A program made the position numbers and the translations under genes. Of a DNA stretch of 32,000 nt, positions 2,488 through 26,533 are shown one piece after another. This DNA is from Geobacter sulfurreducens PCA (GTDB lineage Bacteria; Desulfobacterota; Desulfuromonadia; Geobacterales; Geobacteraceae): assembly GCF_000007985.2 (NCBI RefSeq), contig NC_002939.5, positions 3,180,001-3,212,000 of the forward strand, in the 5' to 3' direction. The first letter of the stretch is position 1. Every line of letters starts with the position of its first letter. The notes below the pieces were generated by a model that worked only from the letters and a program-made list of their open reading frames with translations, did no database searches and was not told where the DNA came from.

Positions 2488-2570
2488 TCCCTTCTCCTGA
2501 ATCGCGCCGCGTGGGGCCGCAGCCGCAGCGCCCTCTCCCGGCCCGCCGCCCCCATGCTGCTGCAAACAAA

Positions 2571-2602
2571 GAGAGGTGGGGCGCCCTGCAGCCTCACCTC
2601 TC
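2571..2602 (-). terminator. Rho-independent terminator/attenuator-like hairpin after small ORF B
   Basis: Minus strand: GAGAGGTG-aGGC-tgcagggc-GCC-c-CACCTCTC followed by TTTGTTTGC. It begins 21 nt after the TAG of the 20-codon ORF. Confidence 0.6.
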
Positions 2603-2623
2603 CGTGCTCGGGCCGGCTGTCGA

Positions 2624-2686
2624 CTAACAGGGATGCACGTTGGCGGAGCCGACGATCCGCGGTTTGACATAGCTGCGCTTTTTCAT
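2624..2686 (-). CDS. Small ORF B, 20 aa: MKKRSYVKPRIVGSANVHPC (unlisted; paralog of 26591-26653)
   Basis: ATG AAA AAG CGC AGC TAT GTC AAA CCG CGG ATC GTC GGC TCC GCC AAC GTG CAT CCC TGT TAG, translated by hand. GAAAGGA SD-like element 9 nt upstream. 15/20 residues identical to ORF A, with many synonymous codon differences. Followed by a hairpin. Confidence 0.7.
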   Translation of the reverse strand: MKKRSYVKPRIVGSANVHPC

Positions 2687-2738
2687 CTGATCACGTCCTT
2701 TCCGCACCCGCAGGTGCACTATCCGGTGTGTAGCGTTC

Positions 2739-5700
2739 CTACCACGGTGACTTCGTATTCCACAACTGCCCGTCCTGCGAGTAGGTCGAGCCGCCGGCGG
2801 TGGCGCTCTGGTGGCAGAGGGTCTGGCTGTTTGTGGTTATGCTGGTAGATTGAGTGGCCTTGCCGAAGAACCACTTGCCCGCAGTGCCCAAGGGCTGGTC
2901 TCCCGTACCGCCGCCCCCCTGCGGGAAGCGACCCACACCCGCCCCCTTGGATCCGCTCTGGGATGCTGGGCCGGTCATGCTGCCGCCGGAGGCCGCCCGG
3001 CCGCGGTGCTTCACGTCGAGGCAGTTGGTCACCAGCAGGCGCGGCAGCTTGGCGTTGTGCGGCGTGTGGCACTTGGAGCAGGTAAAGGCGTGGACCTTGT
3101 TGTTGGCATTGCCCCCGCTGGCGGTCGCCCATCCCTTGACCGTGTTGTGGACCCGCCGCATGGTCTTCCAGTTCGAGGTGGCCGGCGCTGCCGTGTTGTT
3201 GAGGTCGGCCTGGGCGTGACAGCCGGTGCAGAGTCCGGCGAACTGGGCATCGGTGGTACCCTGCATGGTACTCGGTGTCTGGCTGGATGCGTTGTTGGGG
3301 AAGGTCCACTGGCTGCGTGTCGCTGCTGCGGCAATCCCCATGCTGTTCTGGTCGATCCGGTAGCCCGGCGTGCTGCCGACGTTCATGGCACTTCTCTTTT
3401 TGCCGCCGCCGCGGGCTTCGGTTTTGCTGGCCGGCGCCGCATCCTGCTTGTACGGCGAGGTGACCCAGGTCCCCTTGAGGAGGGGTACGGCATAGGCCTG
3501 GTTGGCTCCCAGGGACGGGCTCACGCCGTGGGGGTCGTGGCACGGCGTGCAGAGGCCGTTGATGGGCTTGGCGGCGGTGGTGGTCAGGCTGGAGGATGCG
3601 CCGAAGTGCCCGCCCTTGTTGTCGGGGTTCAATGCCTTGTAGGCATAGGTCTGGGTGTTGGCGAAGGTGCCGCTGCCGAAGTACGGCGTATCGTGGTAGC
3701 CGTAGATGGCCTGGGTGGAGCCGAAGGTCCCGCCGCTGGCCGTCGGACCGTACCCCCAGGGAGCGGTTGCGCCGGCGCTGGCGGTATTGTGGCAGTCGAA
3801 GCAGAGGGCCGCACCCGGGTTGTAGGCGTTCTTGTTGGGCTCGACGGCATCGCCCCCCGCATACGGCGTGTAGTCGGCGGTGTAGCCGCCGATGCCGTTG
3901 CTGGTTGCCTTGAGGATACCGCCCATGTTGCGGCCGGTGGCGCTGGAGTAGCTGCTCATGATGCCGGTGGCGCTGGTGCCGTGGGAGTTGTGGCAGTCAT
4001 AGCAGAGCACGTTGACCGTGCCGCTGGTATTGGCATAGACCTCGCCGGTGGTGCTGTTCCCGACGGTCCAGCCCCGCTGGTTCAGGTCTGCGCGGCCGTG
4101 GGCCGAATAGGCCTTGGTGAGGCTCTTGGCTACCGTGTTGTTGCCGGTGACCTTGGCCCACGTGGTGGTAGTGGCAACGCTGTACCGCTCGGCAATGCTC
4201 TTGCCGTCCCATGCGTACTGCGTCGGCGTCATGCCGTCGCCGAAGGGCTGGCTGGCCGCGTTGGTGGCATTGTGGCAGCCGAGGCAGTTGCTGTTGAGCT
4301 TGGCAAGCTCCGTCCGGGTGCCGTTGGAGGTATAGGCGGTGCCGGTGCTCCCCTCGGTGTAGGCTACCGGTCTTGAGGTAGTGGTCCGGATGACCAGGTT
4401 GACCGGCTGGCCGGCCGTTCTGGTGTGATAGGTCGTATTGGCGGTGCCGTTTGCGTTGGCCTCCCAGTGGCACTGGTAGCAGACCGTGTTGCTGATCTGC
4501 ACGCCCTGCACGTGGTGCGACTCGCCGCCGAACTGCGGGATCACCGCGGCGCGGGTGTTCACCTCGCCACTGTGGCAGCCGATGCAGGTGGGCTTGTGGG
4601 TGCCGCCGTCATAGGTGCCGGTGCTCGGGACGCCCCAGGTGGGTCCGGCCACCGCCGTGGTGTCGTGGCAGAGGATGCTGAAGCACTTCTTGGCACCGCT
4701 GTCGTAAGTGGCCGTCACGCCCACCACCGTAGAGTTGAAGACCACGTCGATATCGCCGTTCACGTGCTTGGGATTGCCGGAACCGGAACCCAGGTGGCAG
4801 ATGAAGCAGTCGATGCCGTAGCCGCCGTTGGCGGAGCTGGCGGAATGCTTCTGGTGGCTGTCGGTGAAGGCCGAGGTCTGGTTCTTGTGGCAGCTGCCGC
4901 AGTTCATGGGCGCGCCGCCCCAGACCGGCAGCGGGCTGGCGTAGTTGCCCCTGCCGTCGCTGTGGCAGTAGACGGCGCAAGTGCCGAAGGCGGTGCTCGG
5001 CGCCAGGCCGTTGGTCGCGCCGCTGGCACCGGCAGTGCCGTTGCCGGCGGCCGGGGTGTACTGCGGGTTGGCGACCTTCTGGTTCAGGCGTTGGGCCGTG
5101 CTGTAGAACGCCCATTCCACCTTGCCGTCCACGTGGTAGTTGTTCTCCTTGACGCCGTGGCAGTTGGAGCAGCCGAGACGCGGCTTGCCAAAGGCGGTGC
5201 TCACGTGGGCGTCATGGGACCCGGTGGCATGGTAGGTGTCGGCGGTCACGCCGTGGCAGGTGCCGCACGCGGCCTGGGACGAACCGCCTTCCCAGTTGGG
5301 CCTGGTGTTGCTCCCACCCTGCAGCGCCGCCCGGGTGGACGTTCCGCCGCCGTGGCAGTAGAGGTTCGCACAGGTGTTGAGGGTATCCGCGTTGGTCGTC
5401 CGGCGGACCACCGTTCCCGCATTGGTGGATTTGTAGACGATTCTCGGCGAGTAGTTGTCGGACAGGGTCGAATAGCCGTAGAACGTGCCGCTGGTGACCC
5501 TGCCGCCATAGGCGTTGAAGCCCATCTCCATGTCGTAGCTCGGCATCTCCTGCGAGTACTGGTAGTGGCAGACGTTGCAATCCTTGCCGATGCTCGGATT
5601 GAGGGCGTGGGCCTGGTGCGCGCCCACCATGCCGGGGGTAAGGGCTCCCACGGCCGGGATGGTCATGCCGGCCTCGTCGACGGGCGGCCGGCCGTGACAG

Positions 5701-8700
5701 GTATTGCAACTGTCCACAACGCCGTTGACGTGCAGTTTCGGGTCCTTGAAGGCGTATCCCGTGTTGTCCACATGCTTGTGGCAGAGGATGCACTGGTTGG
5801 CGACGAACGGCCTGTTGTTGTTGTCGTCCCAGTGGGTGTAGCCGGGCAGCGGCGCTGCCGGCGGGAAAGCATGGCACTTGACGCAGTCGTTGGTGCCCAC
5901 GCCGGTGAGATAGGGAGAATTCCAGACGGCGGGCGCCGGCGAGCCGAGGGAAGCGCCGTCTGTGACGGCAGAGCCGTAGGGGCCGGCCCCCACGTTGGAG
6001 GCCATGCCGCCGCCGTGGCACCAGACGTTGCTGCACTCCCTGCTCGCATAGTTGTAGGACGGCTGGTGCTCTGCGCTGGAATAGCCGTTCTGCACGCCGC
6101 TGCCGGCAATGGCGCCGAAGATGACCTCGGCCGGCAGGGCCGAATCGATGTGGCCAGGGGTGTAGGGGCCCGTGGGCTTCAGGTGGCAGCCGGAGCAGTC
6201 GATCCTGGCCGAATACCTGAAGGGCATGGAGGTGATGTGCTGGAAGTGCGCTCCCACGTAGGCATCGGTCTTGGACGTGGTGCTGCCGGGTCCGGAGGTG
6301 CTGTAGAACCCTGCGGCGGACGGGCTGGTGGTGTGGCACTTCTCGCAGAGCGGAACGGCGTGGTTCGGCGGTTCCCAGGCGAGGGTCCGGCGGGCGCCGT
6401 GGCAGTTGCCGTTGTAGCAGGTGCCGTAGGGGGCGGAACCGGGCGTCTTGGCGGAACTGTAGGAATAGTGGGTATTCTCCCCAAGGCCCGTGAACATGAA
6501 GTTGATCTTGCTGTTGCCATGGTTGAGGGAGTTGGTGCTCCCGCCGTTGGCGTGACAGATGCGGCAGTCGAAGCCGGTCACCTCTTCTCCGGCGTGCTGG
6601 GGATGGCCGCCGGTGGTGTTGGGATCGGCCTGGTGGCAACTGTTGCAGTTGGTGGAGCCGCCCCAGACCGGCGTTGCAAAGCTGGTGGGACCGCCGGTGC
6701 CGTTGTTGGACTGGACATCACTGTGGCAGTACAGGTTGGAGCAGGTGCCGTAGCTGCCCGGGGCGGTGGGGGCCTTGGCGCCGGTGGAGCCTGCCGCGAC
6801 TCCGGCGTACCTGGCAGTAGTGCTGTTGGCGGCGAGGTCCCATTCCACGTTGCCGTTGATGTGGGACGCGCTGGTGGAATAGTTGCGAAAGCCGTGGCAC
6901 TTGGCGCAGGCGATGCCGTTGCCGTAGCCGGGCTCGTTGCCGGCATGCTTGGCATGGCTCCCCGACGGCGGCGGGACATCTGCCGTGGCGGCATGGCACG
7001 AGCCGCACCCCACCTGGGTGATGCCGGTCCAGGCCGGTTCGGTGTTGTAGCCGCCGTTGCCCTCCCAGCCGTGGCAATAGACGCTGCAGGTCATGATGGT
7101 ATTGGGGGCCTGCTGGATGGTGGTGCCCGCGGCGCCGGACCAGGAATAGTCGTTGCCCGGCGCGAGGGTGCGTATCGTGCCCGTGGTGACGCTCCCCACG
7201 AAGCCGGGGAAGGTTCCGTTAGCGACGCTGAAACCCAGGTTCAACTGCATGTCGGGGGTCGCCGTGACCAGGTGGTTGGCGTTGCTGTGACAGGCCGTAC
7301 ATGTCACCTGCCGCGCATTGTGCTTCCCATGGGAGCCGGCATTGCTGGCAAAGGGGAACAGGACCTCGGTCGGCGGCACCACCAGCATCTCGTAGCTGGT
7401 GGGCGGATTGCCGTGGCAGTCGTCGCAGGACTGGCCGGTGGCTTTCGTCTTGAAGCCGATGCTGTGGGGATGGCACTTCAGGCAGTCGCCGTTGTTGTTA
7501 TGATCCTTCCAGGCAACCTTGGCGGCGCTGTACTGGTGGAACCGGGCCCGGTGATGGCAGACCTCGCACACGTTGGTGGATGCGGTGCCGCTCCTCCTGT
7601 CATTGCCGAACACGCCCGCGACATTCGCATTGATGGCCGTGGAGATCGTGTCGAAGAGGACCGGACGGGGTCCGGTGGGCGTGGTTATCACATTCCTGAC
7701 CTGCTTGATGTTGGTCGCGTCGGGAGAATGACACGTACTGCAGGTAAAATTGACACCCCACTTGCCGTACTTCTGGGTACCGAGCTGCAGGCTGCTGTGC
7801 ATCATGGTGCCATACTTGTTGACCACGACCTCGATGGGATCGGGGCACACGGTTTCCCCGCCGCTGCTCTTGACCACTTTCACGTGGAAGGTCTTGACCG
7901 CCCCCTCGATGGCTCCCGGCTTGGCCGTGATGTCCAGGTGCGTGTATTTCGAGCCGTTGTTGGTCGAAATGACAAAATCGTTGGCCTCGAAGGCGGCAAC
8001 GGTGAAGTTGCTGTCGTCGATGTTCGTGCCTTGGGTGACGAGGCTGAAGGTGGTGGGTCCGCAGACCCCGGTATCCTTGTTCTTGATGCCGATGGTCAGC
8101 TTGACGGTGGTGCCCGCCTTGACATAGGACGCCGTGGGGTTGACGATCAGCTCCGGCAGCTCGTTGCACCGGTTCTTGATGGCCGCCGTTGCGCTGGCGG
8201 TGACGCCGGCGTTGATATTGTTGACCGAGTCGATGACACAGAGGCGATAACCGTAGTTGACCCCTTCGTCCAGCCCCTTGTCGACCACGGAGGTGGCGGG
8301 GCCCTGGTAGGCCAGGAAGGTCTTGGCGTTATCCACCGTGCAGGTACGCGGGGCCGGCGCGTTGCCCAGGCCGCGCACCAGCTTGTAGGTGACCGGCTGG
8401 CCGCCGGCATCGGTGGTGCCGAGCCAGCTCAGGTTGACTTCGGCCCGGTCGGTGTCGTTGTGGTAGGTCCCGGTGACGGCCGTGAGGGACGATTCGTTGG
8501 GAGGCTCTTCGTCCATCAGGATGGTGGCGCTGCCGGCATCGTTCACCAGCAGGGCGTTCGTCGTCCTGGAATGGGTCACCGACGTTACCCGGCCCTTGAC
8601 GGTGAAGGTGATCCCCTGGTTCCCCTTGGGGGTGATGGCCACGTAGTAGTCGGTGGGGATCTGGGTGGCGGCCAGGCCGGTGGTGGGGACCTGCCAGTTG

Positions 8701-11150
8701 TCGGCCATGGTGGGGGCGGTCAGGTGCCCCAGGGACGTGCCCGCGGCAGTGACGATATCCACCCGTCCCACGTAGTCGGAGATGACCTTGCCGGCCGGCA
8801 GCCCGCTGGTGGTCGACAGGGTGACCGTGACGTTGCGGATCGTGTCGTTGACGCCGCCGTTGGTCCTGAGTCCGAAGGCATCCACTTTGGTGGGGCCGGC
8901 GTTCCAGGGAATGATCGCGTTGGGGGGCTCGGCGGCGATGAAATCGCTCAGGGTGGTCGTGGGCAGAATGGTCAGCGTGGCCGACGTACTGTCGTTGTCC
9001 ACCCCGATCCCCCCGGTGGAGGCTACCGTCAGGTCGTCGACAACGGCGGTGAGGATCACGTTGGTGTTGGGGGCATCGCCGATGTTCACCACCACCAGGT
9101 AGCGCCTGACCGCGGTGCTGATCGCCAGGTTGAGCCCGGAGATGGTCGCGGTGTTGCCGGAAATCGTGGCGGTGGAGCCGAGCAGGGTGTCGCTGCCGTC
9201 AAGGGTGCCGATGGTGCCGGCATCGGCGTACAGCTTCACCTCTTTGATATTGGTGCCGGTGAACGTGGCGTTCCCCTTGATGGTGACGGCCGTGACCGTC
9301 TTGGCCTTGGCCGCAGTCAGGGTGAAGCTGTCGATGACCTTATTGACGTCCGAGGCATAGACAGTGGCATTGGGAATGGCCGAGCCGTTGCCCACGTCCA
9401 CGTTTTCGTTCTCGGCCGCAGTCTCCTGCACCATAAGCTGGGCATTGACCGAGCTGCCGAGACCGATGCGCATGCCGGCGGTGACGCCGATCTGGATGCC
9501 GAGCCGGGCGCCGGCCGGCACATTGCTGAAATCCTGTCCGGCCAGGGAGGTGGTGATGGTCTGGCTGATCGAGCTGCCGGTGGTGTAGCGGGAGGTTATG
9601 GGGGCGTTGACCCTGACCCCGTCGCTGGTCACGTAGAAGAGCTGCAGCGTCACCGTGCCGCCGCCGAAGGGGGTATAGACCCGGTAGACAAAGGATCCGC
9701 CCTTGATGGTTTTCATGACCGAATGATATCCGGCCCCGGCGAAGTAGAGCCTGATGAAATCGGGCTGGGCGGTGGTGGCGGAGTATCCCCGCCCGGCAAC
9801 GCTGGCGCAGGTGTGGCTCGGGTAATTGAGCAGGCCCACGAGGGGGAAGCCTGACCCGGTGGTGTTGCTGGTGATGCAGGCGGTGTCGGTGGCGGAGGGG
9901 CCGCCCGTTTCGGAAATCCCCGCCAGGGTCGTGCCCTCGTCCCAGTCCGCGGCATAGATCTTCGTGACCGCGGTGCCGCCGTACTGGATGGTGGGGGTTG
10001 AGGAGGAGGTGCTCGTAACGTTCACCACGCCGCCGGCCGCGCCGGTGACCGCGAAGTAGGAGCTGTTGGCCACCCGGGCTCCCACGGTGGTGCCGTAGGT
10101 GGAGTTCCGGGCGATACTATAGACGATGAAATAGCGCTGCGGCGTCGTGGTAATGGTCTGCGGGGTTGCCAGCTCATAGGCCTGGCCGGTGAGCTGGGTA
10201 AAGGTGTAGGGCCCGCCGACCTGGGTGTCGGTCTTCTGGAACAACCCGTCGCCGTTGGCATCCTTGAAGATGGAGAAGGTGACGTCGCCCGGCTCGTCCT
10301 CGTTCACGTAGACGCTGGTGTTGGTGCCGATCTTGTCGAGCTTGCCGCCGCTCCAGGTGGCTCCGCCGCTCACGTTGGAGTACAGGTCCATCTTGAGCAT
10401 GGGGATAGCGCCGTCCCCCTGGGTCACCGACGCGAGCTGGCCGCTGTAGTAGTCGGACAGGTTGTTGACCGTCACCGAGTTGGCCACATAGGGGGCCTCG
10501 GTCACGGTGAAATAGGAGTAGTTGGTGCTGTTGCCCCAGTAGAAGCGCGCCGACGACGAGGTGCTCGCCATCCGGCAGGTGACGACCACCTTGAGCCGGT
10601 AGCCGGCCTCGACATCCTTCGGCTGGGGGTTGGTAAACGTCAGCTCCAGCGGCGTCTGGACCGCCGGGTGGGCCTCTTTCTCGTCCGAGGTCCAGAGCAG
10701 CACGCCGTTATTGGCGGTCCCCTTCGGATTGTAGGCGTACACGTACGCCTTCCAGTACATGTTGTTGGTGGTGCCGTTGCGATCCCGCATCCCGATGGTG
10801 ACCGACGGGGCGGTGAGGGTCTGCTTGGTGGCATAGACCGGCCCGTAGGCCCTGATCATGTTCTGCTCGGCGGTGCTGACGGAGGCGGTAACGTACCGGG
10901 AGGTGGTATAGACACCCGGTTTCATGGAAATTTTGCCGTCGCGGCTGGTCCTGGTCGTGGTGTAGCCGTCGGCGCCCAGGTTTACGGCTGCAGAATCAAG
11001 GGTGAAGTAATAGGTATTGGTGGCCGTATCGCCGATCAGGGGCCGGAACATGGCCTGGTACAGGAAACAGGCCATCACCAGCATTACGGTAATGCCGATT
11101 TTAGTCCGTATCCCCATTCCCCTGATTTTCCTGACGAGCGCTGTTTCCAT
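2739..11150 (-). CDS. Giant multihaem c-type cytochrome, 2803 aa (about 27 CxxCH + 7 Cx3-4CH) with a ~1136-aa haem-free N-terminal region
   Basis: Uninterrupted 8.4-kb ORF. ATG at 11150 preceded by GAGGGA. N-terminal hydrophobic anchor (IGITVMLVMACFLYQAMF). The first haem motif, CSTCH, is encoded at 7728-7742 (residue ~1137). Repeated CxxCH..CxxCH..CxxxxCH units (CSNLYCHSD, CANLYCHGGG, CAVYCHSDG) match the Geobacter CxxxxCH...CXXCH motif family. Confidence 0.95.
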   Translation of the reverse strand: METALVRKIRGMGIRTKIGITVMLVMACFLYQAMFRPLIGDTATNTYYFTLDSAAVNLGADGYTTTRTSRDGKISMKPGVYTTSRYVTASVSTAEQNMIRAYGPVYATKQTLTAPSVTIGMRDRNGTTNNMYWKAYVYAYNPKGTANNGVLLWTSDEKEAHPAVQTPLELTFTNPQPKDVEAGYRLKVVVTCRMASTSSSARFYWGNSTNYSYFTVTEAPYVANSVTVNNLSDYYSGQLASVTQGDGAIPMLKMDLYSNVSGGATWSGGKLDKIGTNTSVYVNEDEPGDVTFSIFKDANGDGLFQKTDTQVGGPYTFTQLTGQAYELATPQTITTTPQRYFIVYSIARNSTYGTTVGARVANSSYFAVTGAAGGVVNVTSTSSSTPTIQYGGTAVTKIYAADWDEGTTLAGISETGGPSATDTACITSNTTGSGFPLVGLLNYPSHTCASVAGRGYSATTAQPDFIRLYFAGAGYHSVMKTIKGGSFVYRVYTPFGGGTVTLQLFYVTSDGVRVNAPITSRYTTGSSISQTITTSLAGQDFSNVPAGARLGIQIGVTAGMRIGLGSSVNAQLMVQETAAENENVDVGNGSAIPNATVYASDVNKVIDSFTLTAAKAKTVTAVTIKGNATFTGTNIKEVKLYADAGTIGTLDGSDTLLGSTATISGNTATISGLNLAISTAVRRYLVVVNIGDAPNTNVILTAVVDDLTVASTGGIGVDNDSTSATLTILPTTTLSDFIAAEPPNAIIPWNAGPTKVDAFGLRTNGGVNDTIRNVTVTLSTTSGLPAGKVISDYVGRVDIVTAAGTSLGHLTAPTMADNWQVPTTGLAATQIPTDYYVAITPKGNQGITFTVKGRVTSVTHSRTTNALLVNDAGSATILMDEEPPNESSLTAVTGTYHNDTDRAEVNLSWLGTTDAGGQPVTYKLVRGLGNAPAPRTCTVDNAKTFLAYQGPATSVVDKGLDEGVNYGYRLCVIDSVNNINAGVTASATAAIKNRCNELPELIVNPTASYVKAGTTVKLTIGIKNKDTGVCGPTTFSLVTQGTNIDDSNFTVAAFEANDFVISTNNGSKYTHLDITAKPGAIEGAVKTFHVKVVKSSGGETVCPDPIEVVVNKYGTMMHSSLQLGTQKYGKWGVNFTCSTCHSPDATNIKQVRNVITTPTGPRPVLFDTISTAINANVAGVFGNDRRSGTASTNVCEVCHHRARFHQYSAAKVAWKDHNNNGDCLKCHPHSIGFKTKATGQSCDDCHGNPPTSYEMLVVPPTEVLFPFASNAGSHGKHNARQVTCTACHSNANHLVTATPDMQLNLGFSVANGTFPGFVGSVTTGTIRTLAPGNDYSWSGAAGTTIQQAPNTIMTCSVYCHGWEGNGGYNTEPAWTGITQVGCGSCHAATADVPPPSGSHAKHAGNEPGYGNGIACAKCHGFRNYSTSASHINGNVEWDLAANSTTARYAGVAAGSTGAKAPTAPGSYGTCSNLYCHSDVQSNNGTGGPTSFATPVWGGSTNCNSCHQADPNTTGGHPQHAGEEVTGFDCRICHANGGSTNSLNHGNSKINFMFTGLGENTHYSYSSAKTPGSAPYGTCYNGNCHGARRTLAWEPPNHAVPLCEKCHTTSPSAAGFYSTSGPGSTTSKTDAYVGAHFQHITSMPFRYSARIDCSGCHLKPTGPYTPGHIDSALPAEVIFGAIAGSGVQNGYSSAEHQPSYNYASRECSNVWCHGGGMASNVGAGPYGSAVTDGASLGSPAPAVWNSPYLTGVGTNDCVKCHAFPPAAPLPGYTHWDDNNNRPFVANQCILCHKHVDNTGYAFKDPKLHVNGVVDSCNTCHGRPPVDEAGMTIPAVGALTPGMVGAHQAHALNPSIGKDCNVCHYQYSQEMPSYDMEMGFNAYGGRVTSGTFYGYSTLSDNYSPRIVYKSTNAGTVVRRTTNADTLNTCANLYCHGGGTSTRAALQGGSNTRPNWEGGSSQAACGTCHGVTADTYHATGSHDAHVSTAFGKPRLGCSNCHGVKENNYHVDGKVEWAFYSTAQRLNQKVANPQYTPAAGNGTAGASGATNGLAPSTAFGTCAVYCHSDGRGNYASPLPVWGGAPMNCGSCHKNQTSAFTDSHQKHSASSANGGYGIDCFICHLGSGSGNPKHVNGDIDVVFNSTVVGVTATYDSGAKKCFSILCHDTTAVAGPTWGVPSTGTYDGGTHKPTCIGCHSGEVNTRAAVIPQFGGESHHVQGVQISNTVCYQCHWEANANGTANTTYHTRTAGQPVNLVIRTTTSRPVAYTEGSTGTAYTSNGTRTELAKLNSNCLGCHNATNAASQPFGDGMTPTQYAWDGKSIAERYSVATTTTWAKVTGNNTVAKSLTKAYSAHGRADLNQRGWTVGNSTTGEVYANTSGTVNVLCYDCHNSHGTSATGIMSSYSSATGRNMGGILKATSNGIGGYTADYTPYAGGDAVEPNKNAYNPGAALCFDCHNTASAGATAPWGYGPTASGGTFGSTQAIYGYHDTPYFGSGTFANTQTYAYKALNPDNKGGHFGASSSLTTTAAKPINGLCTPCHDPHGVSPSLGANQAYAVPLLKGTWVTSPYKQDAAPASKTEARGGGKKRSAMNVGSTPGYRIDQNSMGIAAAATRSQWTFPNNASSQTPSTMQGTTDAQFAGLCTGCHAQADLNNTAAPATSNWKTMRRVHNTVKGWATASGGNANNKVHAFTCSKCHTPHNAKLPRLLVTNCLDVKHRGRAASGGSMTGPASQSGSKGAGVGRFPQGGGGTGDQPLGTAGKWFFGKATQSTSITTNSQTLCHQSATAGGSTYSQDGQLWNTKSPW

Positions 11151-11194: not shown

Positions 11195-14134
11195 CTACAT
11201 GGCCGAATGGCAACTGACGCACTCGGTAATGCCGTTGTTGTCGGTCCACTTCACGCTCTGGCCGTTGTGGCAGGCGATGTTGGAGCAGGTCTTGGTGCCG
11301 CCGTCCCACATGGTGGCCGTGTCGAGCGCCTGCTTGGCTGAATCGTTGGCACCGGAGACCTTGTAGCCGCCGTTGCGCTTCCAGACGCTGCTGTAGGTGG
11401 CGATGGCGAAGCTTGCCGGCCGCATCTGGGCTTTGGAGATGACGGCCACGGGTTTGAACGCCACATCCACGAGGCCGTTGACGTGCTTCGACCGGTCCGC
11501 GATCGCAGCCCGATTGCCCGACAGGGCACCGACGGCGTTGCCGTCGTAATGGCAGGTCTTGCAGACCGCGTTGTCGTCGTTGCGGGCGGTGGTGACGGTC
11601 TCGTAGTGGCAGATGTTGCAGCTGATGGTGGTGGCGGTGGCTGCATTGCCATGGCTGCTGCTGCCGGTGGTGCCGGCCGTGGCGCGCTTGCCCGGGCTGC
11701 TGTAGATGTTCATGGCGTGGATGCCGATCTGGTGGCCGCCTGCCACGCCGGTGTAGCCGAGGAAACGGTTGTTGTAGTGGGACGAGGACCCGGCAATGGT
11801 GCTGTTGGGCGAGTTGCCGTGACAGGCGGCGCAGCGGTCGCCGGCAAAGCTGCCGCCGTACCAGTCGGGCGTGGCGGCGTAGACCAGGTTTGCGGCGTAG
11901 CCGTTGCTGTGGCAGTAGACCGACGCGCACCTGACCGACGCGCCGGTGGTGCCGGTCAGGCCGCTGCCGGCTGAATTGAGTCCGCTGCCGTTGGTCGCGC
12001 CGTTTTTCGTTTTCAGCCCGCCGGCATTCACATCGTTCTTGCTGAGGGAGAGGTCGATGTGGCCGTCGATGTGGTGCACCGGATCCATCGGATGGCAGTT
12101 GGCGCAGCCGTAGCGATAGGCCGCTCCCACCGGGTGGTTGCCGGTATAGGCATAGAAGGTCGGGATCATCCCTCCCACGTGGATGCCATGGGCGCCTCCC
12201 AACCCGGCGATGGGGTGGCAGGCGTTGCAGTTCTGGGCGGAACCGCCCCAGCGGGGGGTCGCGTAGGCCCTGCCGGTCTGCCGGCCGTTGGAGTGGCAGT
12301 AGACGTTGGTGCAGCGGCGGCTGAGGTCGTTGTAGGACGGGCTGTTGCCGCCCGCGACCGCGGTGTTGAAGGTGACGTTCTTCTGGGTGTTGGCGTGCAG
12401 GGTCGTGCCGGGCACCAGGGAGACGCCGTTCTGGGTGGTGCCGGCGTGGCAGGTGCTGCAGTCGCCGGCCGACCTGACGTGTTTCGGGTTGTGGGAGTTG
12501 AACCAGTTACGGTCGGCAGAGCTGTAGTTGTTGTAGTTGGGCTCGCCGAACCGGCTGACAAAGACCCCGGCCGGGCCGGCGGTGGACGCGCCGTGACAGG
12601 ACGAGCAGCCGTAGGTGGTCGCCGTATCGCTCCAGGGCACCATGGTCCGGTATGCCGGGGAGCGCTGGCCCGAGCTGTGGCAGTAGACATTCGAGCAGGT
12701 GCCGGCGGCGATCGTGCCGGCCCGCTGTCCGGAGTAATCCTTGAAGCGGTTTACGTGCCTGGCCTTATCGGCAATGGTCAGGTTCCCGGAAACGGTAGGG
12801 GCGTGGCACTCCACGCAGCCGATACCCGTGCCGAGCCCGCCGTTGTAGCTTGCATCCACGTGTTTGCGGTGGTTGTTTGACGCAATGACGTTGCCGCTCC
12901 CCTGCTGACCGCCATGGCAGCCGGTGCAGCCTGTCGGGAAGTCGGCCGCCCCCCAGGTCACGGCGTAGTCGTTGAACGGCGGCGTGGTGGTGGCGCCGTC
13001 GGAGTGGCAGTAGATATTCCGGCAGGTGCCGTAGGCGGTGCCCACGTCCTTGGCCACATGCCCGGCGGCGCCGCCGTAGGTTCCGGCGCTGCCGATGGCG
13101 GCCTCGAAGGAGATATCGGCCTTCTTGTTCACGTGCTGCGTCGGATCGCCGATCTGGCGGGAATTCGTCACTGTTGCGCCATGGCACTGGACACAACCGA
13201 TCTGCGCCGCGGCATTCACCCCCACGTGCGCCCCGTGGGACCCGGTCTGCATGGGAGAGCCGGAGTCGGCATCCCCCCGGTGACAGCCGAGACAACTGGT
13301 GCCGAGCGTGCCTGCCCAGTCGGGCGACTGATTGGGAGGGTCGTAGCTGCCGGCCTTGGTGCCGGGGCTGTGGCAGTAGAGGTTGGTGCACGCGCCGGTG
13401 CGGGACGGGTTGTAGAGATAGAGGGGATAGCTCACATCGCCGCTGAAGGAGCCGCCGGTGTTGGGAAATGCCGTGAACTGGATCACCAGCCCCCGCCGGC
13501 CGGCGCTCGTGGCATGGGAGAACGCCCCCTTGCCCGGCTTGGCCGCATGGTCGGGGTGACACTTGACGCAGGCCGTGGTCACATCCCCGTAGTACTGGGC
13601 ATGCTTTGCGTGGCGAGCGTCCGCCGGAGGGGCGCTGTGGCAGGTGGCGCATTTCTGCTGGATCGTCTTGCCGCCGTCCAGGTAGAGCGGCGTGGCCCCG
13701 TTCTGGGGGGTCGTCTTCTCGAAGTGGCAGTTGACGTTGGAGCAGGTGCCGAAGCTCGGGCTCGCCGTGCGGGTGAAGGACGTAAGGTTCCTGTAACGGG
13801 CCGTGAGCCGCGAGTTATTGATAGTGGTCACAAAGTCCACGTTGTTGTTGCGGTGGTTGTAGGTGGCGGGCATCTTGTGGCAGATGGCGCAGTTGGGGGT
13901 TCCGGCGCTAAGCCAGGCATGGGTGTCGTGGCTTCCCATGAACCGGCCGGTGGAGATGTTGCGATAGGGGGCATCAACCGGCGGCATGCCGTGGCAGCCG
14001 GAACAGTCGGTAATGGTGCCGGCTGCGGCCGTACCGGCGAGCGCGAAGAGCGCAGCCGCACATGCCAGCGCCGACAGGACTGCCGCACCGGCCAGTGCAC
14101 AGCCCCTGTGCCATTTCATATACACATTAATCAT
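11195..14134 (-). CDS. Multihaem c-type cytochrome, 979 aa (16 CxxCH + 7 CxxxxCH)
   Basis: The ORF track gives 11195..14218. I prefer the ATG at 14134 (GGCGGAGGG SD 5 nt upstream), giving MINVYMKWHRGCALAGAAVLSALACAAALFALAGTAAAG as signal peptide; ATG at 14119 is an alternative. Seven [CxxCH, CxxCH, CxxxxCH] triads read directly. Confidence 0.93.
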   Translation of the reverse strand: MINVYMKWHRGCALAGAAVLSALACAAALFALAGTAAAGTITDCSGCHGMPPVDAPYRNISTGRFMGSHDTHAWLSAGTPNCAICHKMPATYNHRNNNVDFVTTINNSRLTARYRNLTSFTRTASPSFGTCSNVNCHFEKTTPQNGATPLYLDGGKTIQQKCATCHSAPPADARHAKHAQYYGDVTTACVKCHPDHAAKPGKGAFSHATSAGRRGLVIQFTAFPNTGGSFSGDVSYPLYLYNPSRTGACTNLYCHSPGTKAGSYDPPNQSPDWAGTLGTSCLGCHRGDADSGSPMQTGSHGAHVGVNAAAQIGCVQCHGATVTNSRQIGDPTQHVNKKADISFEAAIGSAGTYGGAAGHVAKDVGTAYGTCRNIYCHSDGATTTPPFNDYAVTWGAADFPTGCTGCHGGQQGSGNVIASNNHRKHVDASYNGGLGTGIGCVECHAPTVSGNLTIADKARHVNRFKDYSGQRAGTIAAGTCSNVYCHSSGQRSPAYRTMVPWSDTATTYGCSSCHGASTAGPAGVFVSRFGEPNYNNYSSADRNWFNSHNPKHVRSAGDCSTCHAGTTQNGVSLVPGTTLHANTQKNVTFNTAVAGGNSPSYNDLSRRCTNVYCHSNGRQTGRAYATPRWGGSAQNCNACHPIAGLGGAHGIHVGGMIPTFYAYTGNHPVGAAYRYGCANCHPMDPVHHIDGHIDLSLSKNDVNAGGLKTKNGATNGSGLNSAGSGLTGTTGASVRCASVYCHSNGYAANLVYAATPDWYGGSFAGDRCAACHGNSPNSTIAGSSSHYNNRFLGYTGVAGGHQIGIHAMNIYSSPGKRATAGTTGSSSHGNAATATTISCNICHYETVTTARNDDNAVCKTCHYDGNAVGALSGNRAAIADRSKHVNGLVDVAFKPVAVISKAQMRPASFAIATYSSVWKRNGGYKVSGANDSAKQALDTATMWDGGTKTCSNIACHNGQSVKWTDNNGITECVSCHSAM

Positions 14135-14218
14135 GACGACCCTCCGCCTCTTTCCGCAGGAGTACCCGACAACTGACAATTCTTGCAGCCCCTTAACGGC
14201 CCGCTGTCGCCTTATCAC

Positions 14219-14528: not shown

Positions 14529-15599
14529 TCAGGCGGTACGGGCCCGCCAGAAAAGGCAGGCGGCGAGAACAGCGGCGAATCCCGCCAGAAGGGCGGCCTT
14601 GCCGGCAAGGGAAACGCCGGCTGCCGTGGCGGCAATGCCCCACGACTGGACCAGGGCGCCGCCGATGAGCATCCCCACCACCACGAGCCCCGCATCGGCG
14701 TCCCCCTCGCCCGCCTTGATGAGCTGGCGGAAGGGGCAGCCGCCGATGAGGACGGAAATCCACCCCACGAGCCCCATGCCGAGGAAGCTCCAGAGGTGCT
14801 CCGGATGGGCGCCGGGCTGGCCGTGGAGACCGGGGTTGAATCTGCCGAAGGCTACGTTGGCGGCCACCGCCGCAGCCAGAAAGGCCACCACACCCCAGAG
14901 GGCCGGGGTCCGTCTGCCCATGATGAACGCATCACGGATGCTGCCGGTTATGCAGAAGCGGCTCCGCTGGGCCATGGCGCCGAGCAGCGCGCCGGCGCCC
15001 AGGGCAAGGGGAACGGGAGCGTGCTGTGCCGCGCTCCCCTGGCCGGAAAAGATGATGAAACCGGGGCGAACGAGAAGAAAGACCAGGAGCAGGAGAAAGA
15101 AGGCCGGGATCAGCGGGCCGCCGTGACCAACGCCCGGTGACGGGTGCCCCGGCTCCACCCCGTTGGCGAGCCCCCGGAGACCGGCCCAGACCCCGGCGAC
15201 CAGCCCCACGACGCCGGCAACGGCGGTCAGGTCGCCGGCAGCCAGGCGCAGGAAGAGCTTGATGGGGCAGCCGATGAAGATGGCACAGCCGACAATGAGG
15301 AACACTCCCGCAACGAGGCGCGGCAGGGGGGCGCCCCCGCCGCGGGAGCGGAACTCGCGAAAGAGCAGTGCGCTGGCCGCGGCGCCGAGCACGAAGCCGA
15401 TCAGTTCAGGCCGCAGGTACTGCATGCGGGGGTTGTCGTGCATCCCCAGGGCCCCGGCGCTGTTCTCCATGAAGCAGGAAACGCAGATTCCCGAGTTCTC
15501 CGGATTACCCCAGACCGCCAGAAGCGCACCGAGGCCGCCGAGGAAAAGCCCCGCCGCCACCACCATCCAGAAATGCCGATCCCGCAGCACTACTCGCAC
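14529..15599 (-). CDS. YedE/YeeE-family membrane protein (putative sulfur/selenium compound transporter)
   Basis: Polytopic and Gly/Ala/Leu-rich. Family-typical motifs GNPENSGICVSCF, RSRFCITGSIRD and GGCPFRQL. The ORF-track start at 15599 is GTG. A GTG at 15590 (TAGTG overlap with the upstream stop, GGGAGG 9 nt upstream) and an ATG at 15566 are alternatives. Confidence 0.75.
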   Translation of the reverse strand: MRVVLRDRHFWMVVAAGLFLGGLGALLAVWGNPENSGICVSCFMENSAGALGMHDNPRMQYLRPELIGFVLGAAASALLFREFRSRGGGAPLPRLVAGVFLIVGCAIFIGCPIKLFLRLAAGDLTAVAGVVGLVAGVWAGLRGLANGVEPGHPSPGVGHGGPLIPAFFLLLLVFLLVRPGFIIFSGQGSAAQHAPVPLALGAGALLGAMAQRSRFCITGSIRDAFIMGRRTPALWGVVAFLAAAVAANVAFGRFNPGLHGQPGAHPEHLWSFLGMGLVGWISVLIGGCPFRQLIKAGEGDADAGLVVVGMLIGGALVQSWGIAATAAGVSLAGKAALLAGFAAVLAACLFWRARTA

Positions 15600-16129
15600 C
15601 CTCCCGCCAGCCGACTCTTCAGGTAGTTGACCTTGCGCAGGGACGCCGCCAGGCTCCGGTTGCCAGGGTTGGCGGCTGCCCGGCCGCCGATGCCCGCCAG
15701 CCCCTCGACCACCAGGCCCTCGATGGCGCGGCGCCGTGACAGGGGGCTCTGTGCGTCCACGTAATCGCCATTGAGCCTGACCCCTTCCTCAAAGGAAGCC
15801 ACGGCCTCGTCCAGTGCCCCCATCTTCCGGAGGATCTCCCCCCTGAGGATGTAGCCGTGGGCCTCGCCGGGGTAGCTTCGGATCAGCTCGTTCAGCCTCA
15901 GGAGGGCTTCCTGGTCGTTGCCGGCCGTGCGCAACTCCTCCACCGGCCCATAGAGCCTGGCGATCAGCTCGACGCGGGCGCGATAGGCCATCTCACGCTC
16001 CACGGCCTTGCCGAGGCCCGCGGCCCTGCCTGCTCCTGCCCCGTGATTCGTTGCAAGAACACCGGCCAGAGCCGCAATGACGACGGCCAGGAGCAGCCAG
16101 GTTATTTTGTCGAAGGTGTCGGTGAACAT
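15590..16129 (-). CDS. Membrane-anchored TPR-repeat protein (179 aa from ATG at 16129)
   Basis: Met36 of the 214-aa ORF gives MFTDTFDKITWLLLAVVIAALAGVLA as a TM anchor. TPR-like helices follow (DQEALLRLNELIRSYPGEAHGYILRGEILRKMGALDEAVASFEEGVRLNGDY). The start lies 22 nt after the upstream stop. Confidence 0.6.
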   Translation of the reverse strand: MFTDTFDKITWLLLAVVIAALAGVLATNHGAGAGRAAGLGKAVEREMAYRARVELIARLYGPVEELRTAGNDQEALLRLNELIRSYPGEAHGYILRGEILRKMGALDEAVASFEEGVRLNGDYVDAQSPLSRRRAIEGLVVEGLAGIGGRAAANPGNRSLAASLRKVNYLKSRLAGGCE

Positions 16130-16151
16130 TGGAAAAACCAGCCTTTTCAGG

Positions 16152-17057: not shown

Positions 17058-17094
17058 TACATGGAGTCCTGTCGTTGTCCGGGCGGTTAACCCG

Positions 17095-19090: not shown

Positions 19091-19394
19091 AGCGGATAAA
19101 TCCCTTGACGGCCAGTTCGTCCAGGAATGCCTGGACATCTTCCCGCAGCACCGCCTCGTCCACCTCGAACTGGGGGAGCAGCTCCGCCACGATGCCCTCC
19201 GGGGTCCGGCCGTCACAGAGCTTCCAGATTTCAGTGCCGAGATAGTTGAGGGAGAGCATGGTCCCACCGGAGAACAGGACCGAGGTGCCGGTCTCCTCCA
19301 CCGCCTCGCCCCGGTCCAGGGCCTCCAGGACCCGGGCCAGGGCATCGGCCTCCTCGCGCCACATGACGTCGGGGTTGCGATGAATCGTCTTCAC
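19080..19394 (-). CDS. PqqD-family peptide chaperone (RiPP recognition element)
   Basis: Typical PqqD-family pattern: HRNPDVMWREE...LNYLGTEIWKLCDGRTPEGIVAELLPQFEVDEAVLREDVQAFLDELAVKGFI. I prefer the GTG at 19394 (AAGGAAGG SD 8 nt upstream). The ORF-track start, a GTG at 19418, is the alternative. Confidence 0.8.
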   Translation of the reverse strand: MKTIHRNPDVMWREEADALARVLEALDRGEAVEETGTSVLFSGGTMLSLNYLGTEIWKLCDGRTPEGIVAELLPQFEVDEAVLREDVQAFLDELAVKGFIRYAE

Positions 19395-19438
19395 GTTTCT
19401 TACCTTCCTTGCTCTCACAATCCGTTGTTGTGAATGCC

Positions 19439-19759
19439 CTAATCCCCCTGCGCCGTTATGGAGGCAATGACCAGATTCTCCTGGGAAGCGTTGCGGATGC
19501 CGTGGTCCTCGAACGCGGGAACGATCACGATCTGCCCCGTGGTGATGGACTGGGTCTTGCCGCCGGACTGGAACTGGCCGGTACCCTCCATGACCATCCA
19601 GATATGGCTGCCGTGGTGGGTGTGGGTCACGATCTCCTGGCCGGGCTTCATGCAGATGAGGCTCACCCGGGCGTGATCATCGGACCAGATGGTTTCCTGG
19701 TGACGTTTTTCATCGTTGAACGTTTTGAGGGTCTGGACGTCGAGCACCTGTGATTTCAT
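19439..19759 (-). CDS. Cupin-domain protein, 106 aa
   Basis: Cupin motif 1-like GQEIVTHTHHGSHIWMVMEG and motif 2-like GQIVIVPAFEDHGIRN. AGGAGG SD 5 nt before the ATG. Confidence 0.75.
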   Translation of the reverse strand: MKSQVLDVQTLKTFNDEKRHQETIWSDDHARVSLICMKPGQEIVTHTHHGSHIWMVMEGTGQFQSGGKTQSITTGQIVIVPAFEDHGIRNASQENLVIASITAQGD

Positions 19760-26518: not shown

Positions 26519-26533
26519 AGTCTCACAAAAAGC

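Follow-up and report, generated by a model that had tools for sequence, protein, structure and literature searches.

A widespread, almost unannotated family of 20-residue peptide genes, probably encoding the substrate of the radical-SAM system GeoRSP

Two open reading frames of only 20 codons lie downstream of large multihaem cytochrome genes in a stretch of 32,000 nt of the Geobacter sulfurreducens PCA chromosome (hereafter the window, in whose numbering all positions are given). Are such short ORFs genes at all and, if so, what might their peptides do? As judged from sequence comparison, both are genuine members of a widespread, almost unannotated family of 20-aa peptide genes. Their peptides are probably the substrate of GeoRSP, a radical-SAM system for peptide modification that has so far been an orphan and whose genes share a cluster with those of the giant multihaem cytochromes.

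Anatomy of the two 20-codon genes

Peptide gene B (2624..2686, minus strand) corresponds to GSU2897 and reads ATG MKKRSYVKPRIVGSANVHPC TAG, with the ATG at 2686-2684 and the TAG at 2626-2624. Peptide gene A (26591..26653, minus strand) corresponds to GSU3618 and reads GTG MKKKSYIRPRVVGSAVVHPC TGA. Both are annotated as 'hypothetical'; GenBank holds the exact 20-aa sequence of peptide B as hypothetical protein GSU2897, and a peptide identical to it is annotated in G. metallireducens. A ribosome-binding site precedes each start, GGAAAGGA at 2696..2703 (minus strand), 9 nt 5′ of the ATG of B, and AAGGAGG at 26662..26668 (minus strand), 5′ of the GTG of A. The GCGGAAAGGAG context of B recurs in 23 Geobacter-type copies of the family, and the range 2624-2700, to which the original prediction referred, comprises the ORF of B and part of its ribosome-binding site. 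As that prediction had stated, the ORF of the 2803-aa cytochrome ends at 2739, leaving a gap of 52 nt to the ATG of B, and a shared ATCAG precedes the start of both ORFs. Both ribosome-binding sites are purine-rich. The ORF of peptide A begins 142 nt after the gene for a 1046-aa cytochrome.

Codon-by-codon comparison of A and B reproduced the count of 15 identical residues out of 20 on which the prediction had been built. Eight of these (K2, K3, R10, G13, S14, A15, V17 and C20) are specified by different codons, in the case of S14 by AGC versus TCC, and the five replacements are K/R, I/V, R/K, V/I and V/N. The start and stop codons differ as well (ATG/TAG in B, GTG/TGA in A), with the limits of the ORF kept. 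Over the ORF only 38 of 63 nucleotides are identical, and the flanks, compared over 60 and 200 nt on each side, match at the level of shuffled sequence (z about 1.2–1.7). The pair is therefore not a recent DNA duplication, and the counter-scenario raised beforehand, in which both copies belong to a longer, recently duplicated segment, fails because the flanks are unrelated. A 57-nt degenerate back-translation of the peptide found exactly two sites in the window, A and B, where shuffled sequences lead one to expect 0.

Both ORFs are followed by a hairpin. Downstream of B, a terminator-like stem-loop at 2563..2610 (minus strand; GGAGAGGTGAGGC...CCCCACCTCTC then TTTGTTTG) folds with −32.6 kcal/mol (z −2.6), its stem being of the conserved GGTGRG...CYCACC class. 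Between peptide A and the beta-helix gene, an intrinsic-terminator hairpin occupies 26527..26571 (minus strand; AAAAGAGGTGCCGA...TCGGCACCTCTTTT then GCTTTTT; −31.4 kcal/mol, z −7.4), and its folding was matched by 0 of 200 shuffles. A simple terminator scan called neither of them because of its rules for loops and T-runs, whereas folding shows both clearly. Across the family, the 70 nt 3′ of the copies fold with −26 kcal/mol compared with −15 in shuffles (p = 7e-15). Taken together, this anatomy suggests that each ORF is translated as a gene of 20 codons, equipped with a ribosome-binding site and a terminator-like hairpin of its own, and that both belong to one ancient family.

A peptide family conserved as coding sequence

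To see how far the family extends, a degenerate DNA pattern that included no start codon and no ribosome-binding site was run over 185,579 species genomes, and the resulting loci were inspected as 8-kb pieces. The scan revealed at least 83 further copies, hosted by Geobacterales, Nitrospirota (Thermodesulfovibrionia) and a few other lineages. An in-frame ATG, GTG or TTG was exactly in place in 83 of the 83 copies listed from other genomes, and 82 of 87 copies (about 94%) carried a Shine–Dalgarno 5-mer core 4–18 nt upstream, compared with 4% of random windows. A real stop codon directly followed ...V-H-P-C in 84 of 84 unique sequences, though the pattern also permitted TGG. Residues 8 and 10, which the pattern left free, are K or R in 94–95% of cases, spread over AAR, CGN and AGR codons, and the equally unconstrained residue 14 is S or T in 90%. 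The family consensus is M-K-K-x-[S/T/R]-Y-x-[K/R]-P-[K/R]-[V/I]-[V/I]-G-[S/T]-A-x-V-H-P-C-stop.

The family is under purifying selection. Among the 84 unique sequences, all synonymous codons are used for the conserved residues, and synonymous sites are saturated (pS 0.76, with pN 0.20). The dN/dS analysis on a larger set that had been proposed as a check yielded about 0.09 among Geobacter-type copies; because the search pattern inflates dN/dS when taken over all codons, we also give the pattern-free codons alone (pN 0.44 versus pS 0.83), alongside the features outside the pattern described above. On this larger set the starts, ribosome-binding sites, stops and saturated synonymous sites uphold the claim of a translated, selected peptide, as against an RNA element or chance ORF. 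The only points in favour of a chance ORF, or of a repeat that acts solely as RNA, are the very small size and the lack of calls by automated pipelines. Against them stand the conserved frame, start, stop and ribosome-binding site, the saturation of synonymous sites and the lack of an Rfam match: neither the whole window nor, at a permissive threshold, the range 2450-2800 gave a relevant hit to any structured-RNA family. The family-wide codon pattern effectively refutes this explanation, to which we assign a negligible likelihood.

Each peptide contains one or two Cys, and in most copies the single Cys is the last residue; one Nitrospirota subtype ends in CVHPC. Neither a signal sequence nor a hydrophobic segment is present in the peptide. 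Since a YedE transporter is encoded in the cluster described below, we also searched for selenocysteine variants, and the fetched loci held no in-frame TGA version of the last Cys codon that would point to a selenopeptide.

The family has so far been almost invisible to databases. Pfam and NCBIfam scans of both peptides gave no match at E ≤ 10, and a protein homology query with A and B concatenated retrieved only two longer, mis-called ORFs in which the peptide is embedded. Ten common variants were absent from a collection of 15 billion proteins, and the peptide genes are listed only in three hand-curated Geobacter genomes. We found no family model in Pfam or NCBIfam and no describing paper in the searched literature, where queries for GeoRSP, GSU2897, GSU3618, GSU2904-2911 and TIGR04302-04 brought up nothing relevant in the library used. 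Because a family of this kind is invisible to automated annotation, much conserved coding sequence below 30 codons is presumably missed.

Gene neighbourhoods and the GeoRSP cluster

All genes considered in the window are on the minus strand. The 2803-aa multihaem cytochrome (2739..11150), with 27 CxxCH motifs and CxxxxCH/CxxCH domains, is encoded immediately upstream of peptide B and followed in the numbering by a 1007-aa multihaem cytochrome (11195..14218). A third, of 1046 aa (26796..29936), lies upstream of peptide A. By counting accession numbers, the probable locus tags are GSU2898 for the 2803-aa and GSU2912 for the 1046-aa protein. Between copies A and B lie the radical-SAM/PqqD maturase genes of GeoRSP, which the original prediction did not mention. 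They encode the SPASM-domain protein GSU2904 (17095..17964; TIGR04304, 511.7 bits versus a cutoff of 300), the radical SAM/SPASM protein (17969..19090; TIGR04303, 667.8 bits versus 400), whose start is uncertain as the model match begins at residue 133 of a 458-aa ORF, and the PqqD-family peptide chaperone, a RiPP recognition element (19080..19418; TIGR04302, 173.4 bits versus 100). The GeoRSP trio is thus complete, with contiguous radical SAM and SPASM genes and all scores above the curated cutoffs.

On one side of the trio is an SBP-TPR-YedE module, consisting of a YedE-family putative selenium/sulfur transporter (14529..15599; TIGR04112, 400.8 bits versus a cutoff of 200), a TPR protein (15590..16234) and a phosphonate-binding-type periplasmic binding protein (16152..17100; the listed ORF extends to 17252 and the 5′ end is uncertain). 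On the other are a cupin (19439..19759), whose gene is always immediately 5′ of the PqqD gene, a 637-aa ArsP_1-type permease (19819..21732), which is a conserved cluster member, and ResB-like (21773..22681), OpuAC-like (22701..23258) and CarboxypepD_reg-like (23331..24020) proteins. The NosD-like right-handed beta-helix protein GSU2911 (833 aa; 24017..26518) is encoded by the first long gene 3′ of peptide A.

The peptide genes are 7 and 14 kb from the maturase genes in the window, and no other small gene lies beside the latter. In the window and in loci L113 and L116, the gap between cupin and PqqD genes is only 2–20 nt, and a search there for another small conserved ORF found none that recurs. 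Many other copies of the peptide gene are found at the head of, or within, a cluster of the type NosD-like beta-helix...YedE...permease-cupin-GeoRSP PqqD-rSAM/SPASM-SPASM. Its order (beta-helix/CarbPepReg/OpuAC/ResB-like/(SBP-TPR-YedE)/permease/cupin/PqqD/rSAM/SPASM) is conserved in Geobacterales, one Desulfobacteraceae genome and Nitrospirota. In the window and in loci L081, L083, L115, L117, L033, L021 and L007, the peptide gene is located just 5′ of the beta-helix gene, and in L086 it lies about 1.7 kb upstream of that gene. Gene order in L121 is PqqD, rSAM, SPASM, cytochrome and peptide, and in L064 true GeoRSP genes lie 4 kb from the peptide. Peptide and GeoRSP also occur together on three further Nitrospirota contigs and one complete chromosome; the loci where they share a cluster or contig are the window, L064, L081, L083, L086, L115, L117, L119-L121 and CP070788. 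No peptide was found within ±10 kb of GeoRSP in L111/L112, L113/L114, L116 and L089; the L111 genome carries a copy elsewhere (L009).

Could a different enzyme be the maturase? In two loci, L062 and L117, a radical SAM/SPASM protein of another family (365–373 aa; 37% identical between the two and below every NCBIfam cutoff) is encoded 1–2 kb from the peptide, which would fit a precursor processed by this family; an enzyme encoded elsewhere is another candidate. Only 2 of about 120 loci show this arrangement and the window has no such gene, whereas GeoRSP co-localizes far more often and additionally provides a PqqD recognition protein. We regard another maturase as very unlikely.

For about half of the listed copies, the neighbour is a cytochrome or a CarboxypepD_reg-like protein and no maturase is visible nearby. 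The expectation that every copy follows a large multihaem cytochrome gene did not hold, as 34 of 75 evaluable listed copies (about 45%) do so and 10 of the 75 follow CarboxypepD_reg-like genes; in locus L002 a protein of roughly 300 aa and a peptide are encoded as a pair three times in tandem. Every copy is paired with a large upstream gene, which would suit an unmodified micro-protein that acts with the product of its neighbour, independently of GeoRSP. Such a peptide could serve as a small subunit, assist in assembly or donate His/Cys ligands, with the giant cytochromes, the CarboxypepD_reg-like proteins or the NosD-like beta-helix protein as its partner, and its His-Pro-Cys end, extended to CVHPC in the Nitrospirota subtype, does resemble a metal or haem ligand set. 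However, the partner proteins are secreted and the peptide lacks the means of export noted above. Nor would this account for the RRE-type YxxPx[V/I] motif, or for the fact that the only PqqD/rSAM system of the cluster is left with no other candidate substrate. An unmodified micro-protein therefore seems unlikely to us, if worth keeping in mind.

The hairpins raise yet another explanation, namely that the ORF is a cis-acting regulatory leader or ribosome-arrest peptide, whose translation or stalling at Pro-Cys-stop controls the hairpin and read-through into the next genes, with a small molecule perhaps being the signal. Known arrest peptides, TnaC among them, are short and conserved and act at a Pro-stop. 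A strong hairpin follows almost every copy, and the same SD-like/anti-SD-like stem (GGTGAGGC...GCCTCACC) is present in 27–33 of 86 copies, in both phyla, its sequence being kept beyond what structure alone needs. Same-orientation genes often follow, such as the beta-helix operon after copy A. Yet the downstream genes are heterogeneous (ankyrin, CarboxypepD_reg-like, beta-helix), and 47 of 80 evaluable listed copies have no recognized gene within 1.5 kb downstream. One genome holds nine or more copies, and an alternative antiterminator pairing was not found. Furthermore, the whole peptide is conserved, including an RRE-type motif that arrest leaves unexplained. We consider a regulatory leader distinctly improbable.

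Recognition motif, proposed role and known systems

All copies carry the motif Y6-x-x-P9-x-[V/I]11. The search pattern required Y6, P9 and a hydrophobic residue at position 11, which in part explains why they are invariant in the scan set, but the motif is also found in five copies identified without the pattern (L081, L083, L086, L115 and L117). Among relatives of the GeoRSP PqqD protein, only TbiB1 (5v1u/5v1v) and LppB (9x8z) have solved structures; both are discrete recognition domains that have been crystallized with [Y/W]xxPx[L/V/I/F/A] leaders (PMC13381572; PMC10368454). In LppB, D70 holds the Tyr, N33 holds the Pro kink and F74 splits the pockets. These residues align to D94, N58 and F98 of the GeoRSP PqqD protein, and all three are unchanged across 10 such GeoRSP proteins drawn from both phyla; the match does not prove specificity, since the equivalents are common in other PqqD proteins too (PMC13381572). 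The nearest solved structure to the GeoRSP radical SAM protein is PqqE (6c8v). On NCBIfam models the GeoRSP protein scores 160.6 bits for the mycofactocin maturase MftC and, about as close, 163.9 for AhbD and 161.8 for NirJ2, both of them haem enzymes, and GeoRSP may have a non-peptide substrate, as the protein is equally similar to the tetrapyrrole-modifying AhbD/NirJ.

The role that best fits these observations is that of a precursor, i.e. the substrate of the GeoRSP system encoded between copies A and B. The N-terminal half of the peptide would dock, via Tyr6-x-x-Pro9-x-Val/Ile11, on the PqqD-family recognition protein. This protein would then offer the C-terminal tail, a short stretch that closes with a near-invariant His-Pro-Cys and a free carboxylate, to the radical SAM/SPASM enzyme and the SPASM-only protein that acts with it, and these would modify it. 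We put at roughly 0.6 the probability that the peptide is a precursor of the RiPP or cofactor type and that modification takes place at the VHPC of its C-terminus. GeoRSP is a catalogued radical-SAM/PqqD system with an NCBIfam entry and no substrate model, for which the peptides offer a concrete candidate.

The product could be consumed stoichiometrically, as a cofactor, prosthetic group or metal/haem ligand for the extracellular redox machinery, following the logic of PQQ and mycofactocin. Such a cofactor-like product is likelier than a toxin because the peptide is conserved over two phyla, unlike antibiotic RiPP cores, is multi-copy and is usually co-transcribed with genes for giant, secreted multihaem cytochromes or with NosD-like/YedE/permease genes. 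A more specific and rather speculative version, which we think doubtful, is that GeoRSP makes an unrecognized peptide-derived cofactor or prosthetic group from the C-terminal His-Pro-Cys, perhaps with sulfur, selenium or metal handling by YedE, the NosD-like protein and the permease, and that it is supplied one-for-one to the giant extracellular multihaem cytochromes of Geobacter and Thermodesulfovibrionia. In Geobacter and in subsurface Nitrospirota, the peptides and maturase genes accompany the largest multihaem cytochromes, so that the system may be relevant to the building or tuning of the machinery for extracellular electron transfer.

Among known systems, TnaC-like arrest leaders share a short conserved ORF with a critical residue beside the stop, followed by a terminator and then genes, but the present family differs in its multiple copies, varied downstream genes, RRE-type motif, co-localized maturase and lack of an identified antiterminator alternative. 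Sactipeptides and SCIFF/ranthipeptides resemble it as small Cys-bearing peptides matured by rSAM/SPASM enzymes. GeoRSP genes match the SCIFF, PapB and StsB maturase models weakly, with all scores far below cutoff, and the peptide has no multi-Cys pattern. We rejected a SCIFF/ranthipeptide precursor, given no NCBIfam match and one or two Cys versus a six-Cys C-terminal pattern.

With the leader recognition of lasso and LPP systems (TbiB1, FusB1, LppB), the peptide shares a Y-x-x-P-x-[V/I] that fits [Y/W]xxPx[L/V/I/F/A] (PMC13381572, PMC10368454), and N58, D94 and F98 of GeoRSP PqqD match LppB N33, D70 and F74. In contrast to these systems, there is no lasso cyclase, protease or kinase, the partner enzyme is a radical SAM/SPASM protein, and the peptide lacks a conventional core since only nine residues follow the motif.

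Mycofactocin (MftA/MftB/MftC) is similar in having a PqqD-like chaperone, an rSAM/SPASM maturase and a short precursor on which radical-SAM chemistry takes place at the very C-terminal end, which is conserved. The peptide ends in V-H-P-C, not G-V-Y, there is no mftD, mftE or mftF, and the MftC score given above lies below the cutoff of 265; identity with MftA was rejected on this C-terminus and on the lack of an NCBIfam match to any mycofactocin precursor model. PQQ differs in that the peptide does not match the PqqA model and, having no Glu among its consensus residues, lacks the Glu/Tyr pair of PqqA. The window is also without pqqB and pqqC, all PQQ model scores are below cutoff and the precursor copies are dispersed beside cytochromes; we rejected PqqA identity for want of a consensus Glu and of any Pfam or NCBIfam match. 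As for similarities, PqqA/PqqD/PqqE combines a very short (about 23-aa), strongly conserved ribosomal precursor with a PqqD-family chaperone and a radical SAM/SPASM enzyme, and yields a cofactor, not a toxin. PqqE is the nearest solved relative of the GeoRSP radical SAM protein, and the GeoRSP PqqD protein matches TIGR03859 weakly. If the cofactor proposal is true, GeoRSP and its peptides would join PQQ and mycofactocin as a third system of this kind, one devoted to extracellular electron transfer.

Two copies of a 20-codon ORF

All genes across the window lie on the minus strand, and two of them encode closely similar 20-aa peptides. Copy B (GSU2897, 2686–2624; ATG AAA AAG CGC AGC TAT GTC AAA CCG CGG ATC GTC GGC TCC GCC AAC GTG CAT CCC TGT TAG) encodes MKKRSYVKPRIVGSANVHPC and starts 52 nt past the end of the ORF for a multihaem cytochrome of 2803 aa (2739–11150). 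Copy A (GSU3618, 26653–26591; GTG AAG AAA AAA AGC TAT ATT CGT CCG AGG GTT GTC GGG AGC GCA GTG GTT CAT CCC TGC TGA) lies 142 nt past a 1046-aa cytochrome. The original prediction compared the two codon by codon and was right in every detail: the peptides agree at 15 of 20 positions, at eight of them through different codons (including Ser AGC vs TCC), and all but one of the five replacements are conservative. Nucleotide identity is 38/63 over the ORF, and the 60- and 200-nt flanks on both sides resemble each other no more than shuffled sequence does (z 1.2–1.7), which rules out that the copies are part of a longer recent duplication. Exact look-up found both ORFs in GenBank, but only as hypothetical proteins. 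No Pfam or NCBIfam model matches either peptide, no family model for the peptide exists, and our literature search found no mention of it, GSU2897 or GSU3618. Ten common variants from other genomes were absent from a collection of 15 billion proteins. A 407-aa mechanical ORF in another frame over copy B (1447–2670, minus strand) was rejected as a high-G+C artefact; the recorded ankyrin-repeat protein has 346 aa (AAR36288.1, start at 2487, minus strand), and at least seven other loci likewise have an ankyrin gene 3′ of the peptide.

A peptide family and its coding signature

We searched a set of 185,579 species, each represented by one genome, with a degenerate pattern of 60 nt that fixes only parts of 13 codons and includes neither the start codon nor the ribosome-binding site. 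We estimate from its information content that ∼0.3 matches would arise by chance; the scan returned at least 83 matches at no fewer than 79 loci, as 8-kb pieces, the scale at which neighbourhoods were read. Hosts among the matches listed are Geobacter, Pelotalea, Geomobilimonas and other Desulfuromonadales, many Nitrospirota/Thermodesulfovibrionia genomes, one Deferrisomatales genome and a few others; G. metallireducens, whose annotated peptide is identical to GSU2897, is not among them. Some genomes hold several copies (at least nine in Nitrospirae WY3.bin132 and at least six in DBS2-1.bin159). Five further copies were found independently of the pattern. Some variants lie beyond it: His18 to Gln, ending ...VVQPC, in locus L081 (1396–1458, plus strand); a 19-aa form, KRQYVRPKIVAAAVVHPC, with a GTG start and Ala for Gly13 in L117 (4915–4971, plus strand); an apparent 21-aa form starting GTG-ACG in L086 (543–605, plus strand); and a copy on the minus strand of L010 (offset 4071, reverse-complemented locus) that runs on past HPC with Gln. 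The family must therefore extend beyond the 83 matches.

An in-frame ATG, GTG or TTG directly precedes all 83 matches, and a Shine–Dalgarno 5-mer core lies 4–18 nt upstream of 82 of 87 copies, a set to which the window copies and some later-fetched loci were added, versus 4% of random windows. All 84 distinct nucleotide sequences end in a true stop (TGA 51, TAA 22, TAG 11), where the pattern also permitted TGG. Because the scan fixes several residues, their invariance is partly by construction; however, free positions proved constrained as well. Residue 2 is Lys in 78/84 and residue 3 in 83/84 (N, S, H, Q and R codons permitted), residue 6 is always Tyr (84/84; Phe permitted), and residues 11, 12 and 17 are almost only Val or Ile (L, M and F permitted). 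At pattern-free codons, residues 8 and 10 are K/R in 79 and 80 of 84, with AAR, CGN and AGR all used, and residue 14 is S/T in 76. Over all codons pS was 0.76, with synonymous sites saturated, and pN 0.20; pattern-free codons alone gave pN 0.44 vs pS 0.83, and dN/dS was ∼0.09 among 23 Geobacter-type copies, the coding signature that the original prediction of a translated, selected peptide called for. Starts, stops, Shine–Dalgarno cores, constrained free codons and the excess of pS over pN thus support the view that these ORFs are members of a large gene family in which the peptide is strongly selected. Set against the same features, a chance ORF or an RNA element is scarcely credible.

Gene unit and upstream neighbours

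A ribosome-binding site, the 20 codons and a stable hairpin are packed closely together in each copy; folding of the 70 nt that follow gives a mean of −26 kcal/mol vs −15 for shuffles (p 7e-15). Copy A is followed by a hairpin at 26527–26571 (minus strand; −31.4 kcal/mol, z −7.4) and then GCTTTTT, copy B by one at 2563–2610 (minus strand; −32.6 kcal/mol, z −2.6) and then TTTGTTTG. A stem GGTGAGGC...GCCTCACC is common to 27–33 of 86 copies in both phyla; as (G)AGGTGAGGC...GCCTCACCT(C) it occurs in both Geobacter and Nitrospirota, with ∼0.003 expected per 80 nt, follows the peptide in 12 further loci and is very rare elsewhere in the 1.9 Mb of DNA fetched. No Rfam family matches the hairpin. A plain terminator has no need of a conserved stem sequence. 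In the subtype with a second Cys (RY...CVHPC) the stem motif is absent. That the peptide acts together with the hairpin as a regulatory leader or arrest peptide we consider quite unlikely. The 5′ arm of the stem is Shine–Dalgarno-like and its 3′ arm anti-SD-like. Beyond the Shine–Dalgarno core, the 23 Geobacter-type copies share an extended upstream motif, GTGCGGAAAGGAGAT (2696–2712, minus strand, before copy B, and in at least seven other loci), and Nitrospirota copies share CCGGAAGGAGGTG.

Among the 75 copies with a visible upstream side, a multihaem cytochrome related to those of the window lies directly 5′ in 34, a CarboxypepD_reg-like secreted protein of ∼230–300 aa in 10, and other, mostly large, genes in 30. 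The check that the original prediction asked for, whether every copy follows a multihaem cytochrome, thus comes out negative. The cytochromes 5′ of the peptide usually end ...WNxK[S/T]PW. The longer tail ...CH..(T)AGG......Q.WN.K[S/T]PW-stop (2739–2765, minus strand, in the 2803-aa protein, and in at least a dozen other loci) is kept in both phyla, which suggests that a single orthologous cytochrome lineage is paired with the peptide. An alternative that we judge unlikely is that the peptide stays unmodified and acts on its neighbour as a micro-protein. The second-Cys subtype of Nitrospirota, MKKxRYARPRV[V/I]GSVCVHPC (L002, 93–3591, minus strand, and five other loci), occurs in tandem arrays in which the partner of each copy is a ∼270–335-aa secreted Cys-rich CarboxypepD_reg-like protein, with no cytochrome; in L002, three such pairs directly follow YedE.

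The GeoRSP cluster and a proposed role

A complete GeoRSP system lies between copies A and B. Its PqqD-family peptide chaperone (TIGR04302, 173 bits vs cutoff 100), radical SAM (rSAM)/SPASM protein (TIGR04303, 668 vs 400) and SPASM-only protein (TIGR04304, 512 vs 300) are, by these scores, true GeoRSP members. Relatives gathered via the SPASM protein and the permease revealed a conserved cluster of ∼11–12 genes (14529–26518, minus strand, and 15 fetched loci) in Geobacterales, one Desulfobacteraceae genome and Nitrospirota, in the order NosD-like beta-helix, CarboxypepD_reg-like, OpuAC-like, ResB-like, a module of phosphonate-type binding protein, TPR protein and YedE-family putative selenium/sulfur transporter, ArsP-type permease, cupin, PqqD, rSAM-SPASM and SPASM, with giant cytochromes at one or both ends. 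The module follows the SPASM gene in Geobacter, precedes the permease in Nitrospirota and is divergent in L116. No other small conserved gene was found beside the GeoRSP genes, and the cupin–PqqD gap is 2–20 nt in three loci. 3′ of the SPASM gene lies an FmdE/zf-dskA_traR protein gene in L117 (14648–15169, plus strand) and L118 (8042–8566, plus strand), and in L113/L114 a metallo-beta-lactamase-fold protein gene (L113, 14540–15649, plus strand) whose product recalls PqqB of the PQQ pathway.

The peptide lies just 5′ of the beta-helix gene for copy A and in seven fetched loci (including L081 and L117), ∼1.7 kb upstream of it in L086, and after PqqD, rSAM, SPASM and a 1643-aa cytochrome in L121. 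Genuine GeoRSP genes lie 4 kb from the peptide in L064, and the two occur together on three Nitrospirota contigs (31.7, 43.6 and 44.7 kb) and on chromosome CP070788. For L089, L111/L112, L113/L114 and L116 we found no copy in the 10 kb on either side of the cluster; the L111 genome has a copy beside a cytochrome on another contig (L009). A second, unclassified rSAM/SPASM family occurs 1–2 kb from the peptide in L062 (2888–3985, plus strand) and L117 (2532–3653, plus strand). Its two members share 37% identity and score under every NCBIfam cutoff. That the peptide serves a different maturase, such as this one, seems very unlikely.

For leader binding, discrete PqqD-type RiPP recognition elements use the motif [Y/W]xxPx[L/V/I/F/A] (PMC13381572; PMC10368454), and the peptide carries Y6-x-x-P9-x-[V/I]11. 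The only solved relatives of the window PqqD protein are TbiB1 (5v1u/5v1v) and LppB (9x8z), both discrete recognition elements. Of the LppB residues in its complex, D70 forms a hydrogen bond with the Tyr, N33 holds the Pro kink in place and F74 separates the two pockets (PMC13381572); these align to D94, N58 and F98, invariant in 10 GeoRSP PqqD proteins from both phyla. The nearest solved relative of the rSAM protein is PqqE, and by NCBIfam the rSAM protein is about equally close to the mycofactocin maturase MftC and the haem enzymes AhbD and NirJ. From these motifs, residues and relatives we propose that the N-terminal half of the peptide would dock on the PqqD protein, that the nine-residue tail ending His-Pro-Cys would be presented to the rSAM/SPASM enzyme, and that it might be modified at or near the C-terminal Cys. 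The peptide is thus a candidate precursor for an rSAM/SPASM-PqqD system, a known kind. Its conservation across phyla, its multiple copies and predicted strong expression by design, its predicted co-transcription with giant cytochromes, and the transport and metal/chalcogen-handling proteins of the cluster (YedE, NosD-like, permease, cupin) point to a consumed cofactor or ligand, putatively linked to the cytochromes, rather than a toxin. It is a doubtful extension of this reading that the family points to a new cofactor, derived from a peptide and linked to extracellular electron transfer. Tested for membership in PqqA, MftA and SCIFF, the peptide belongs to none of them. As proposed, the peptide and GeoRSP would work like the PQQ and mycofactocin precursor systems, with a leader motif of the lasso type.
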